A stretch of 64,000 nucleotides of DNA, taken from positions 32,001 through 96,000 of the forward strand of contig CAWCTR010000009.1 in the NCBI GenBank assembly GCA_963798485.1. Direction: 5' to 3'. Numbering within the stretch: position 1 is the stretch's first letter; every line of letters begins with the position of its first letter. Positions 6,410 to 56,243 of the stretch are shown here, piece after piece. A model generated the notes under the pieces. The model saw only the letters and a program-made list of their open reading frames with translations. It ran no database searches and was not told where the DNA came from. The translations under genes were made by a program, and so were the position numbers. The DNA is from an uncultured delta proteobacterium. Its GTDB lineage: Bacteria; Desulfobacterota; Desulfomonilia; UBA1062.

Positions 6410-6497
6410 CTGCGATAAATACGTACTTTTTACAGGGCTCAAAAACCGTTGATAATGTGAATCAGCAAAAAAAACCGTTGATAATGTGCCATCAGCA
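6410..6497. repeat. Dispersed repeat family copy A (with local tandem duplication)
   Basis: CTGCGATAAA...AAAAACCGTTGAT matches copies at 42149 and 48521. AAAAACCGTTGATAATGTG occurs twice (6441, 6470). GATAATGTGCCA at 6480-6491 is the reverse complement of TGGCACATTATC in other copies. Confidence 0.7.
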
Positions 6498-39914: not shown

Positions 39915-40040
39915 TCAGAAACTGATGATTTTGGAAATAAATCTATGCCAAGGGGCATGAATACTCAGAGTGCCGATTTTGTCACGTGATCTATGGTTTT
40001 GAAAATCCCAACTCAGTTCGATGCCTCTGGCACATTATCT
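39915..40040 (+). repeat. Dispersed repeat family copy B
   Basis: GAAACTGATGAT...AATCTATG...CTCAGAG, then 39989-40034 (44/46 identical to 53350-53395), ending TGGCACATTATC. Confidence 0.8.
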
Positions 40041-42200: not shown

Positions 42201-42557
42201 GTGTGTCACGAATGCCGCGAGGCAATGCTGTGTAAGAGATGAGGGAAGGTCCCTCGGCGCCGGTTTACAGGAGCAGGCTTCAAACCGCCTTAAGCTGCGA
42301 TGGTAAAGAGCCATGGTGGTGAGCGTTAGGGGAAATGGCACAAGAATTAAAATGCGTCACGGTGAGTATCGGAGAGACGAGCGAAAGCGAACCAATCGAT
42401 GAGGCATCGAAAGATCATGGATGATGTCAAAACCAGGGTCCCAAACCAACTCTGGGAACAGCTCAGAGGAAACCTGTTTACTGTCTGAGTGGCATCCGGT
42501 GTATAGATGGCGTGAATCCGATACGGGCTTTTACACGGAACGTGAGAACCTGTCGTC
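42201..42557 (+). mobile_element. Group II intron 5' fragment (class D, RmInt1-like), no RT ORF or domains V-VI
   Basis: Starts GTGTG and carries class D domain I motifs (GGTAAAGAGCCATGGTGGTGAGCG, AGACGAGCGAAAGCGAACC, GGCGTGA, GGCTTTTACACGGAAC). EBS1 CAAACCA and EBS2 GATCAT pair with the upstream exon. Confidence 0.88.
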
Positions 42558-42725: not shown

Positions 42726-43319
42726 ATGGTACGAATAAGTATCCGGAATCTTTTGATTGTTATAACAGTTGTACTCTGGTTGGATCCGACATCTGCCATA
42801 TCAAGTGAATGGTCTCCTCCCGAGACCACAACCGATTGGATGAAGTTTACGAGTGGCATGGTCAGTTGTATTGCTGCTCATGAATTGTCACATGTTTTGG
42901 TTGCTCTAGAAAGCGGATATACAATCCATCATGATGGTTTATCGATTACCTATTCGCCGGAATTTAGATCTCGTGCCGATCATCTCCGCATCGCTTCAGC
43001 AGGTCTTCAGGGACAGTGGATAGCATCCGAAGCTGCCTTTGCAGCTGGTGGGAAAGAGGGTAATTTTACGTCTGGGATTATAAGTGGGCACCTCGCCATA
43101 ACGCTTGCGTATATCGTTGTGCTCAGGAACCACCCAGAAGGCGATACCGTTGGAATAGCCTCAGCAAGCGGCCTTAACGTCAATCAGGTTGTTTTCCTCG
43201 CTGCCCTACCAGCAGTTCTTGATGCCTGGCGTCTCTTCGGCAATGAAGTTCCGAAGTGGGTGCCTGTCCTTTCCCTCGCCCTCAAGGGCGCGGAGGCTTC
43301 ATGGGTGTGGACGTTCTAA
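42726..43319 (+). CDS. Hypothetical membrane/exported protein with HExxH motif
   Basis: Signal-like N-terminus, AHELSH, ASAG and GD motifs; hydrophobic helices. Confidence 0.7.
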   Translation: MVRISIRNLLIVITVVLWLDPTSAISSEWSPPETTTDWMKFTSGMVSCIAAHELSHVLVALESGYTIHHDGLSITYSPEFRSRADHLRIASAGLQGQWIASEAAFAAGGKEGNFTSGIISGHLAITLAYIVVLRNHPEGDTVGIASASGLNVNQVVFLAALPAVLDAWRLFGNEVPKWVPVLSLALKGAEASWVWTF

Positions 43320-51167: not shown

Positions 51168-51618
51168 ATGTTTGAACCCAAGAAGATTCTCGTTCCGACA
51201 GATTTTTCAGGATATTCAGATAATGCACTCAAACAAGCTGTGGACATTGCAGAAAAATTTAATGCAAAGATTGTTCTCTTGCATGTCATAGATGAGAACT
51301 TTCTACAGTGTGCAGCAGATTATTGTATCAGCAATGATGCTGTTGAACAGTTAAAAAAAGAAAGTATGAAGACATCAGAAGATAAGATTAATAAGACAAT
51401 TAATACTATTGAAGGGATCAACAAAGGTTGACGTCTCCTCTGTAGTTAAGAAGGGGGTTCCTGCTGAGGTTATATTGGATGAGCAGATGAAAAATGGGAT
51501 CGGTTTGATAGTTATTGCATCTCATGGAAAGACTGGCATCTTGAAGCACCTCATTGGTAGCGTTACCGACAAGGTTGTCAGGGCTGCTAAATGCCCAGTT
51601 ATGGTGATTCGGGCATAG
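51168..51618 (+). pseudogene. Universal stress protein (UspA family), frameshifted
   Basis: ILVPTDFS...LLHV in one frame and G.PAEVI...LIVIASHGKTG...IGSVTDKVVRAAKCPV in another; shift near 51425. Confidence 0.85.
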
Positions 51619-51696
51619 CATCGAATTTTTCTTAGTTCCTTCTGGTGTAGATATATTTATCTATGCAGAAGGAAACTATCCTTCAAAAAAGTGTCG

Positions 51697-51790
51697 ATAA
51701 CTGCGATAAATCGGTGGTTCCAAACGGACAAGGAAGAGTAGATGTTTTGTTTCGAAATCTTCGGTATGGGCAAACCGTGACGATTGGCAC
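51697..51790 (+). repeat. Dispersed repeat family copy G (left flank of IS110 insertion)
   Basis: 87/89 identical to copy E; ends TGGCAC at the IS junction. Confidence 0.9.
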
Positions 51791-51811
51791 CCATTAAAAG
51801 GCCCCTGTCAA

Positions 51812-52243
51812 TAAAAACATAGTTCACCATCGCACTTTTTTTTGCAGGTCTAACGTATAGCCAGCTGGGATCATGCCAACGATTCCCTTTCTGCGCCCTG
51901 TTTTTCATTATGCTCAGGTGACAGATTACAATCTGCACCAGGCACCCATCGGGTTTTAGACTGCACAGCGAGAGGATGAACCTAGATGAGTAGCCCTCTC
52001 AACCCGTACGCCCCTAACAGCATCTGCTGTCCCAGAAAAATATCGGTTCCTTGCCATGTTCAATTGTAAGTGACACGACAATAGGCTCTTCCGGCCACAC
52101 CTTAAAGACTCATGGCAAAGGCAGATCTGAACCATCGGAATTACCTCCACTGGATTCTTGTTTATAAGAGAGGGGTAAACGGCGGAGCAACCACGAAAAT
52201 GGTTCTTAGCCACCAAACGTCTGGTCTCGCCGTTTTCCCCTGC
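51812..52243 (-). ncRNA. Putative bridge/seekRNA region of the IS110 element
   Basis: About 430 nt non-coding, downstream of the transposase. Contains short matches to the target (CATTAT 51906, TGCCAA 51874) and the donor junction (CACCCAT 51943). Confidence 0.5.
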
Positions 52244-53269
52244 TCAGCAAAAGAGCATCTCTTCCTTGAACTCAACGCCATCTCTGAGCATATAGTAGCA
52301 GGCCCTGGCAAGCTTGCTTGCTATGGTCTTGATTGCCACCATCCTGTGAGTTTTCGAAGCCTTCCTTTTGTAGTAGCCGGCAATCTTCGGGGACTGCCTT
52401 AGGGAGATAAACGCCGCTTCAACAAATGCCCAAGCCAGATACCGGTTCCCATTCTTTGCATTGCCTTTGCCCTTGCTCTTCCCGTTCGAAAACCTCCCGG
52501 TAGGAACACAACGGCAGTAAGAGGAGAAGTCTCCCACCCTTGCAAACCGCGAAATATCTCCCACTTCCAGCATGATCGTCATGGCAAGGATGTCACCGAT
52601 CCCAGGAACCATGTGCAGTTTCTCAAAAGCATCCCTCGTCTTCACTTCTCTCTTTACCGTCTTCTCGATATTCCTGATGTTCTTCCCGAGAAAGGCTATG
52701 GTTTCAAGGCTCGTTGTACCAAGGAGAACTAAGTGCTCCTCCTTCAATATCCCTTTGATGTCTTCCGATTTAACCTTCCTCAGTGCATTCGCACTCATGT
52801 GCACACCGGTGTTCCTCTCGATCATGGACTGCAGCGAGATGATATGGGCTGTTCTTTGCTTTACCAGGAATGATCTCTTCCTCAAGAGATCTCGAACCGG
52901 TCGCTCTTCCCTGGGATAGATATATCCTTCAGGGAGAATGCCGAGAGACATCATCTGCGCAAGCCAGAAGGCATCATGTCGGTCATCCGCATACTTGAGC
53001 CCTTTGTACTGCTGTATCGCTGCAGGATTGGCAAGATGTACACAATCATACCCTGCCTCATTGAGCCCATCCACCAGCCAGTACCAGTTAAAGGTGCTTT
53101 CGACAGCTATCCCCCTGATCTCTTCACGGTAAGGGTTTAGGGTCCAAACGAGTTCTTCCAGGTTATTCTTTACACGCTTCTCGAAAACTCGCTTCATTGT
53201 TCCCTTCTCGATCAGCCCTATGTACGTGTTCCCTGAATGGAGATCCAACCCGGCATACAGCTCACTCAT
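52244..53269 (-). CDS. IS110 family transposase (DEDD recombinase)
   Basis: YAGLDLH, AVEST, DDRHDA, VPGIG, SYCRCVP...SNGK, GNRYL. Confidence 0.95.
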   Translation of the reverse strand: MSELYAGLDLHSGNTYIGLIEKGTMKRVFEKRVKNNLEELVWTLNPYREEIRGIAVESTFNWYWLVDGLNEAGYDCVHLANPAAIQQYKGLKYADDRHDAFWLAQMMSLGILPEGYIYPREERPVRDLLRKRSFLVKQRTAHIISLQSMIERNTGVHMSANALRKVKSEDIKGILKEEHLVLLGTTSLETIAFLGKNIRNIEKTVKREVKTRDAFEKLHMVPGIGDILAMTIMLEVGDISRFARVGDFSSYCRCVPTGRFSNGKSKGKGNAKNGNRYLAWAFVEAAFISLRQSPKIAGYYKRKASKTHRMVAIKTIASKLARACYYMLRDGVEFKEEMLFC

Positions 53270-53346
53270 GACACACCTCCTCCTGAGTTATTGTCTGTAT
53301 TATAGCCGTGCGATCTTGGCGAAAGTGCCTTTTAGATGATTATCAC

Positions 53347-53395
53347 ATTATCTATGGTTTTGGAAATCCCAACTCAGTTCGTTGCCTCTGGCACA
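53347..53395 (+). repeat. Dispersed repeat family copy H (right flank of IS110 insertion)
   Basis: ATTATC then 46 bp that are 44/46 identical to 39989-40034. Confidence 0.85.
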
Positions 53396-53770
53396 GGATC
53401 AACAGATTATTCACATGGGGTGGAAAATTTAAACGCTCATTTTTTACAGGCAGTTTTTATCACGCTCAATCACCCCACCTGTCAAAGTGCGGTTAAATCG
53501 GCGCTTACAAATATCCCGAGGATAATTGCAAATAATATTAATACCAACCATTCCATAAGTGGAATATCCTTTTTGTGAGGCGTTCAAGTAACTCATCCTT
53601 GTTGTTTAATCCCACATGATATTTAAGGTCGGTTAAAAAGTGCCGGAACTTAAGCATTACGAAAGTGTGGTGGGAACAAAGCCAAGGTCTTTACAGTGCA
53701 CGTTTGCAATCCAGGAACACCATTATAAAGTCAGACTCGGGCAAAGATTTTCTGGACCATCCTCATGGGT

Positions 53771-56039: not shown

Positions 56040-56225
56040 GATTACTTCGATTTCATCACGGTTTTCAAAAGTCCAAAAGCTGATGATCTTGGTTTCAAAT
56101 CAATGGTATTCTGGCTACAGATTCAAAGCGCCGCTCATGGCACATTATCATCGGTTTCTTGGGACGTGTGGGATCGATGATTTTATTGTATAATCATCGC
56201 TTTAGCCTATATGAATAGTTCTGAT
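56040..56225 (+). repeat. Dispersed repeat family copy J (longest copy)
   Basis: Five alternating-orientation arms related to AAACCGATGAT. Contains GATGATCTTGGTTT and TGGCACATTATC (56138-56149). Confidence 0.85.
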
Positions 56226-56243
56226 CAGTTGCTACGCATCATC

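Follow-up and report, generated by a model that had tools for sequence, protein, structure and literature searches.

The IS1111 elements ISEc11, ISKpn4 and ISPa11, which use a seekRNA (Siddiquee et al. 2024, PMC11187229), and the IS110-group element IS621, which uses a bridge RNA and inserts into repetitive extragenic palindromic (REP) sequences of E. coli, are the closest described systems to the element analysed here. This element is an insertion sequence (IS) located in a 64,000-nt stretch (hereafter, the window) of contig CAWCTR010000009.1 from the assembly of an uncultured delta proteobacterium (GCA_963798485.1), where it interrupts a member of a family of intergenic repeats. Taken as a whole, the evidence is very probably explained by a recently active IS1111-type element whose insertion at the TG core of the repeat is guided by RNA.

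The likeness to ISEc11, ISKpn4 and ISPa11 is one of features. As they are described in PMC11187229, these elements share with the present one a transposase of 330-350 aa, subterminal inverted repeats, a long downstream non-coding region and two short target matches, with the match complementary to the top strand placed 5'; insertion is site-specific and produces no duplication. Unlike in that description, the target module here abuts the stop codon, and a donor-type module follows about 290 nt further downstream. The published minimal seekRNA is 82-96 nt long (PMC11187229).

Published descriptions of IS621 mention several features that are also seen here, namely a recombinase with DEDD and serine residues, a two-loop logic of target and donor recognition, a 2-nt core, handshake bases, a junction promoter and a repeat as the target. 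The similarity of the recombinases themselves is detectable (E 3.6e-7, C-terminal part). In the same descriptions, IS621 encodes its RNA in the left end, upstream, has CT as its core and places the handshake bases next to the antisense guides, whereas here the RNA would be located downstream, the core is TG and two covarying bases come after the sense guide. By analogy, these bases look like the handshake principle of IS621 placed after the sense guides, for which we make no claim of first report.

Elements of the IS4321/IS5075 and IS1111-attC groups insert at one position and in one orientation of a multi-copy DNA site, a behaviour shared by the element in the window. They insert into transposon terminal repeats or integron attC sites, the present element into an intergenic repeat. 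ISPa11 reportedly uses a repeated target as well, and insertion at one spot of a short intergenic repeat is known behaviour for IS110/IS1111 elements. 'ISGsu4 family' IS110-like transposases, a label carried by plasmid homologues, are 43% identical over 99% of the protein, a distant relationship at the protein level. The clade, its bridge RNA model or its target may already stand in the tables of elements and targets of PMC11187229 and PMC11208160.

Ends, empty site and copies of the element

The element occupies positions 51791-53346 of the window on the minus strand (1556 bp with one copy of the common CAC counted; Table 1). On the plus strand, the left junction reads ...GATTGGCAC, with TGGCAC at 51785-51790, followed by the element start CCATTAAAAGG. 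The right junction reads ...GATTATCAC, with CAC at 53344-53346, followed by ATTATC (53347-53352). In silico excision of 51791-53346 regenerated TGGCACATTATC and precisely restored the empty site, so that the insertion into TGGCAC/ATTATC proposed in the preliminary description of this DNA was confirmed by the junction letters. Because CAC is present at both junctions, the ends are ambiguous within 3 nt, and those first proposed hold as one equivalent choice. Comparison with relatives showed that the core common to both junctions is two bases long and reads TG on the transposase strand and CA on the plus strand. No terminal inverted repeats were present at the element ends, and no target duplication was seen past the short common core. 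Read on the transposase strand, the left half of the interrupted repeat supplies the right target (RT, CCAATCGTCA...), with the core ahead of it, and the right half supplies the left target (LT).

The exact 12-mer TGGCACATTATC was found unoccupied at the three positions of the window where it had been reported, two on the plus strand and one in reverse (Table 1), and once more on contig C17. By our own arithmetic, chance would place about 0.008 occurrences on the two strands of 64 kb. At its left end, the element reads ATAATCATC then TAAAAGGC, and at its right end GCCTTTTA then ATGGG (transposase strand). The resulting subterminal inverted repeat of 8 bp, set back by 9 nt at the left end and by 5 nt at the right, falls within the IS1111-group range of 7-17 bp. 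The left terminus together with the left target (53335-53352) forms a run of GATAAT-like hexamers, which may resemble an iron-regulator operator.

The transposase gene is preceded by 77 nt and followed by 453 nt (transposase strand), with the long non-coding region downstream as in the IS1111 group. Pfam profiles matched residues 6-151 (PF01548, E 9e-10) and 217-301 (PF02371, E 6.9e-16) of the transposase, and the protein scored 186.7 bits against NCBIfam NF033542, 'IS110 family RNA-guided transposase' (cut-off 140). The closest solved structures were the recombinases of ISCro4 (E 7.8e-8) and IS621 (E 3.6e-7), both matched over the C-terminal part. Residues D9, E57, D96, D99 and S261 were assigned by motif and spacing, not by structural alignment of the N-terminal part, and are spaced like D11, E60, D102, D105 and S241 of IS621. 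The C-terminal P-x4-S motif reads VPTGRFSNG, with the serine followed by N, not by the G of the IS1111 P-x4-S/T-G motif. The same S-N was seen in most of the relatives parsed, and the regular expression for the motif missed 47 of the proteins examined. A subterminal inverted repeat and a long downstream non-coding region are given as IS1111-group features in PMC11187229 and PMC11208160. Together with the Pfam and NCBIfam matches, they bear out the proposed IS110/IS1111 identity, and the element is, judged by its sequence, an intact and recently active insertion sequence of the IS110 family and the IS1111 type.

Five full copies were found in the genome, belonging to two subfamilies. In subfamily A, the window copy is identical to the copy at C14 160496-162051 and differs from that at C30 65295-66850 at 1 of 1556 positions. 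Subfamily B, 87% like A, comprises C14 379921-381475 and a copy on C10, which are 2 positions apart from each other. Distances of 0, 1 and 2 bases within subfamilies indicate recent activity. On the plus strand, all five copies lie between ...TGGCAC and [AG][TA][TG]ATC. Among 14 other genomes of the same genus, four contained matches, with full copies in G003 (two), G007 (one) and G011 (one). These four copies read ...[CT][GA] TG at the left end and, where readable, TG CCA at the right end. The same target pattern was seen for a piece consisting of the right end only in G002 and one consisting of the left end only in G003, and CCA followed 12 of the 13 right-end junctions seen. All full copies, five in this genome and four in the three same-genus genomes, are thus located at the TG core of a CTGGCA/CG box, and the search for full copies in unrelated targets, as the preliminary description had suggested, returned none.

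Three partial copies were also present in the genome. One is a 552-bp right-end piece at C14:50154, the flank of which ends in GGATCAC, not TGGCAC. The other two are right-end remnants of 83 bp (C10:122526-122608, L121/L008) and 45 bp (C22:18518-18562, L011) that lie between both target halves. Both remnants are flanked by TGGCAC and CACGT[TA]ATC and retain the outward-facing TTGACA; they look like internal deletions or like the outcome of a faulty excision that ran from the left junction to an internal TG/CAC. Several contigs end within the repeat family (C15:34-109, C21:49-131, C3:2-29, C28:14799-14883, and C17:1653-1750 and 306722-306821). The repeat, or IS copies in the repeat, probably breaks the assembly, and copy counts are therefore lower bounds.

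A dispersed repeat target could in principle support the spread of copies by segmental duplication or by homologous recombination between repeats, with the IS carried along and not transposed site-specifically. We regard this as extremely improbable. The similarity between loci ends approximately 70-100 bp from the element and the flanking repeats are only about 70-80% alike, whereas the element copies are 99.9-100% identical; moreover, related elements have other targets, which match their own guides.

A contig of 151 nt and depth 2 from a sequencing run of another study (run X4, record 22) runs from the IS left end (53298-53346) into sequence of which the next 30 letters agree exactly with the flank of the unoccupied repeat copy at 6480 (window 6440-6491, minus strand). 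This contig may reflect an insertion polymorphism in a related population and is too thin to count.

When the element ends are joined on the minus strand, TTGACA, a 17-nt spacer and GATAAT come together in a putative promoter that forms only on joining. The TTGACA-17 bp-GATAAT arrangement described earlier was therefore found in the letters. In addition, it is conserved: TTGAC-N17/18-NATNNT was present in 28 of the 36 distinct junctions that were built for relatives, with GATAAT in 25 of the 28. This makes the promoter motif a clade-wide feature and not an accident of one copy.

Predicted target and donor modules

Relatives were collected by a scan of one genome per species, which yielded 562, and the best 80 of these were retained. 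The 80 relatives were 48-93% identical and came from metagenome-assembled genomes labelled Desulfobacterales, Nitrospirota, Acidobacteriota and others. Together with the five own copies, 85 elements were examined. Recognisable ends, a subterminal inverted repeat and a non-coding region of at least 300 nt made 44 of them usable; the other 41 were truncated by contig ends or off-pattern. The ends were near-constant in the clade (left ATAATCAT..., right ...TAATGGG), the core was TG, or CG in a few, and the flanks varied by lineage. The two cores of one element were unequal (TG/CG or TG/CA) in seven relatives (L050, L045, L037, L095, L089, L028 and L022), as if the junctions had retained different strands of a mismatched core. 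At the right junction of L053, an extra GGTG stands ahead of the flank predicted by the guide.

After the stop codon, the relatives share the same order of parts: a long basal stem, a 5' loop strand, a small UGG...CCA hairpin and a 3' loop strand. The last of these ends in YG, followed by AUUGG in relatives and by GUUG in the window element. RNAalifold predicted 13 pairs for an alignment of 31 sequences, 11 of which were backed by a compensatory change. Paired cells amounted to 90.8% versus 71.6% in shuffles (reached by 0 of 500 shuffles), and partners slid out of register gave 34-48%. The window's own 76 nt folded to the shape of the module, with a minimum free energy of -32.5 kcal/mol (z -3.68).

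In relatives, the predicted right-target guide is formed by the bases 5' of the hairpin, which match the right flank in reverse complement, and the predicted left-target guide by the six bases before YG, which equal the left flank. The left guide is followed by AU, the first two left-end bases, in most relatives and by GU in the window element. An antisense guide located 5' of a sense guide, as here, is the order reported for IS1111-type seekRNAs in PMC11187229. The left guide of the window element agrees with the repeat consensus ATTTCG at 5 of 6 positions and with the window's own LT, ATAATG, at 2 of 6. The right guide of subfamily B has, at each of right-flank positions 1-6, the commonest or second-commonest base of the repeat family, and in these respects the guides fit the repeat consensus.

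We compared the guides of each element with its own flanks and with those of other loci. Guides could be parsed in 40 of the 44 elements, six of which had no usable flanks, and 33 distinct guide/target combinations were left. The match to own flanks was 5.24 of 7 for RT and 4.45 of 6 for LT, versus 2.82 of 7 and 1.91 of 6 for the flanks of other loci. The observed own-flank total was reached by 0 of 10,000 permutations. Natural reprogramming was visible between the two subfamilies, where A has the guide AGACGUUUGG and B the guide GUGAUUCUGG, and the right targets differ to match (5-6 of 7 each). The two sites of subfamily B read ...GATACTGG, agreeing with the B guide at 6 of 7 positions. In L020 (93% identical), the left guide is UUAACA and the left flank ATAACA. 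The complementarity of the guide segments to the target, and their covariation with it among relatives, support the earlier suggestion that the IS is programmed against the repeat. The fold and the covariation likewise support a putative structured RNA with guides for both target strands, overlapping at the core.

Weak left-guide matches in this genome, and the RNA not being directly observed, would fit a transposase that picks its target as a protein alone, with the complementary non-coding segments coincidental or used for end recognition only. This is, in our judgement, very unlikely, as the guides and flanks covary across relatives with different targets, the stem is backed by compensatory changes and experiments reported in PMC11187229 and PMC11208160 describe RNA dependence for members of IS1111 and IS110.

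The first k-mer matches considered as guides, AUAAUG and UUGGCA in the distal non-coding region, were dropped, since the comparison with subfamily B and the relatives place the guides beside the stop codon; UUGGCA forms a hairpin loop, and this hairpin is different in subfamily B. A 365-nt metatranscriptome contig (run X20, record 17), about 96% alike with 14 differences, spans 51847-52211 and includes none of the transposase gene. It is a weak hint that the guide region exists as RNA, DNA being possible in such libraries.

The donor module, located approximately 290 nt downstream of the target module, would combine right-end sequence with the core and the two bases that open RT. Both of these handshake-like bases matched RT in 36 of 41 distinct rows and one of them in 2 (74 of 82 bases), a level reached by 0 of 10,000 permutations. 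The base classes were CC, AC, TC and GC. The core and the last right-end base covary with the donor module too (L072, L090). The left donor guide, the core and the two handshake bases appear clear from these comparisons. The right donor guide is tentative: the GAUAUUUUUC motif is kept in relatives, with AU replaced by CG in L080 and L092, the left ends of which have CG there. In the segment past the donor hairpin (51917-51903, minus strand), subfamily A has CAUAAUG, subfamily B has UAUCGUG and the G003 copies have UAUAGUG, which are similar to the left target in registers that vary with the lineage.

Table 1. Coordinates of the element's features and of repeat sites in the window.
Feature	Position	Strand	Basis
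Transposase gene, 341 aa	52244..53269	-	Only long open reading frame; Pfam, NCBIfam, motif spacing
Left half (plus strand) of the interrupted repeat, ending CTGGCAC	51719..51790	+	nhmmer match C9 83719-83790; five-copy alignment
CAC common to both junctions; core TG (transposase strand) at 51788-51789	51788..51790	.	Junction reading, relatives
Right half (plus strand) of the interrupted repeat, ATTATCTATGGTTTTGG...; left target ...GATAATG on the transposase strand	53347..53370	+	Junction and copy alignment
Right-end subterminal inverted repeat GCCTTTTA (transposase strand), then terminal ATGGG	51795..51802	-	Inverted-repeat score 8; end kept in relatives
Left-end subterminal inverted repeat TAAAAGGC (transposase strand)	53327..53334	-	Inverted-repeat search
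-35 box TTGACA of the putative junction promoter	51806..51811	-	Joined-end reading, relatives
GATAAT, core G plus first five left-end bases; putative -10 box after end joining	53339..53344	-	Joined-end reading
Predicted target-binding module, seekRNA-like: basal stem, internal loop, distal hairpin	52172..52240	-	Fold, covariation
Predicted right-target guide AGACGUUUGG, complementary to RT top strand	52213..52222	-	8/10 against the window's own RT
Predicted left-target guide UUUUCG plus core UG, same sense as LT plus core	52192..52199	-	Guide parsing
Predicted donor module: GAUGGG as in the right end, UG as in the core, CC as in the two opening bases of RT	51941..51950	-	Relatives, permutations
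Hairpin adjoining the donor guide	51917..51939	-	A versus B: one compensatory change, CAGAU/AUCUG versus CGGAU/AUCCG
Candidate right-donor guide GAUAUUUUUC, tentative	52035..52044	-	7/10 complementary to core plus left-end start
Unoccupied 12-mer in another repeat member	40028..40039	+	Genome search for the 12-mer
Unoccupied 12-mer within a repeat unit of about 190 bp (window 56040-56228)	56138..56149	+	Genome search for the 12-mer
Unoccupied 12-mer	6480..6491	-	Genome search for the 12-mer

The repeat family and the choice of target

The repeat was characterised with a profile built from 16 sites, which gave 50 matches in the genome at E < 1e-4, mostly on C9, C17, C4 and C14. Its units are modular and range from about 60 to 190 bp, with the consensus CAGAgCGTtGct..TGGCACGaaATCTAcagTTT at the insertion site. 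Using open reading frames (ORFs) as a proxy for genes, 49 of the 50 matches were intergenic; 20 had the next ORF on their own strand and 30 on the other, which gives no orientation bias. A 189-bp unit had BLAST matches in 6 of 12 other genomes of the same genus and in 0 of 8 genomes from another family of the class. No consensus structure was predicted for 14 long copies on both strands, or for 40 target-centred copies (alifold energy 0 in each case). In these respects, the repeat behaves like a lineage-specific intergenic sequence of the REP or miniature inverted-repeat transposable element (MITE) kind. The preliminary description had called it a conserved multi-copy functional site, of which multi-copy and conserved, at the box, hold; a function is not demonstrated by IS targeting.

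Two other identities of the repeat were considered. Sigma-54 sites are expected to have a second doublet after GG. This doublet was absent from the repeat and there was no strand bias (20 versus 30), and a promoter was therefore discarded. Reading the repeat as an array of integron attC sites, or as the termini of a different transposon, found no backing, since neither orientation nor pairing was consistent.

According to the explanation we favour, the DEDD/serine transposase would excise the element as a circle, and the joined ends would make the TTGACA-17-GATAAT promoter, driving the transposase gene and the 453-nt non-coding region. Once transcribed and processed, the latter would fold as two modules, one for the target and one for the donor. 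Within the target module, the antisense guide would pair with the top strand right of the core, and the sense guide with the bottom strand left of the core, TG core included. The donor module would supply right-end sequence, core and two right-target bases. The modules would thereby position the circle junction at the TG core of the CTGGCA/CG(A/T)(A/T)ATC box in the genus-restricted, modular intergenic repeat, where recombination at the core would insert the element with no duplication past the common core. The sequence comparisons establish the family, the ends, the site-specificity, the promoter motif at the junction, the RNA stem and the covariation of guides with targets; we infer that the circle forms, that the RNA is transcribed and processed and that pairing takes place.

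Several observations weigh against this explanation. The left guide is poor at the five occupied sites, with 2-4 of 6 positions matched. Guide A scores at least 10 of 16 at 935 TG sites in the genome, of which 180 are intergenic by the ORF proxy and only 9 lie in the repeat, and every copy is in the repeat despite these 935 equally scoring sites. Depending on the site, 3 to 24 of the 40 unoccupied repeat members score at least as high as the occupied one. The permutations ignore relatedness among loci, and many relatives share one target type (AC...). The covariation excludes the four of 44 elements with unparsed guides and the six more without usable flanks. Searches of Rfam at gathering scores (whole window) and at E up to 10 (51500-53600) matched no family to the element or to the repeat and gave only a chance miRNA match. 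Finally, none of the short contigs of sequencing runs extends across a junction, and the parts they leave uncovered are uninformative.

Guide scores at the occupied sites were 10, 10 and 8 for subfamily A and 12 and 10 for subfamily B. The genome contains 339 TGGCACG sites, of which 73 are intergenic and 21 lie in the repeat. Guide matching alone is insufficient for the exclusive use of the repeat. Core-proximal positions (CG-TG-CCA) may carry most of the weight, a further determinant may be at work, or well-matched sites may lose copies more readily. Avoidance of genes as the sole cause of the bias was rejected as insufficient, given 180 intergenic equal matches versus 9 in the repeat.

It is possible, though we hold it only tentatively, that target choice has two determinants, with the guides fixing the core-proximal bases and transposase-DNA contacts, the shape or structure of the repeat DNA or a bound host protein restricting insertion to the repeat. 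Equally matched sites far outnumber repeat members, the best-matched members are not the occupied ones and the repeat has conserved positions beyond the guide footprint (GAT at -8 to -6 and CG approximately 10 nt into RT), all of which point in this direction. For ISPpu10, a stem-loop in the target is reported to act as a second determinant (bioRxiv 10.64898/2026.03.19.712850). However, a search of 40 members for a conserved stem-loop within +-40 nt of the target found none (alifold energy 0, mean z -0.48), shared ancestry of the repeat copies may by itself account for the conservation at the flanking positions, and the guide positions may not weigh equally.

A more elaborate version is doubtful. 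The repeat would be an undescribed genus-restricted element, the CTGGCACG box of which is read by more than the guide RNA. The left guide would be tuned to the repeat consensus and the right guides would follow a variable spacer, giving two-layer targeting by RNA and by repeat-specific recognition, and the 45- and 83-bp remnants would stem from aberrant half-site recombination. Half-site recombination is reported in the literature on IS621.

Three further features of the window and the genome were recorded. A split universal stress protein gene (window 51168-51618, plus strand) lies just upstream of the interrupted repeat. Its two ORFs (51168-51431 and 51409-51618) match positions 3-67 and 79-141 of the Usp profile, pointing to a frameshift or a sequencing error. 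A match to domains D1-D4 of a group II intron (RF01999, 95.6 bits) was found at 42241-42362 (plus strand); as the next ORF, 42726-43319, is without a Pfam match, the intron may be a fragment. The top over-represented 10-mers, among them TTTTCAGAAA, TCCAGGGCCT and GGCCTTTTCC, with approximately 90-108 copies each, belong to other, unrelated repeats.

The finding leaves the understanding of how IS110/IS1111 elements work unchanged. To this understanding, it adds a well-resolved natural example of what is very probably RNA-guided insertion by an IS1111-type element, together with a family-wide map of predicted target and donor guide positions in 44 elements from several phyla. The choice and engineering of compact bridge or seek recombinases could profit from the natural reprogramming that these elements display. 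In this genome, the element probably accounts for a set of assembly breaks and flags a lineage-specific repeat family that is worth describing.

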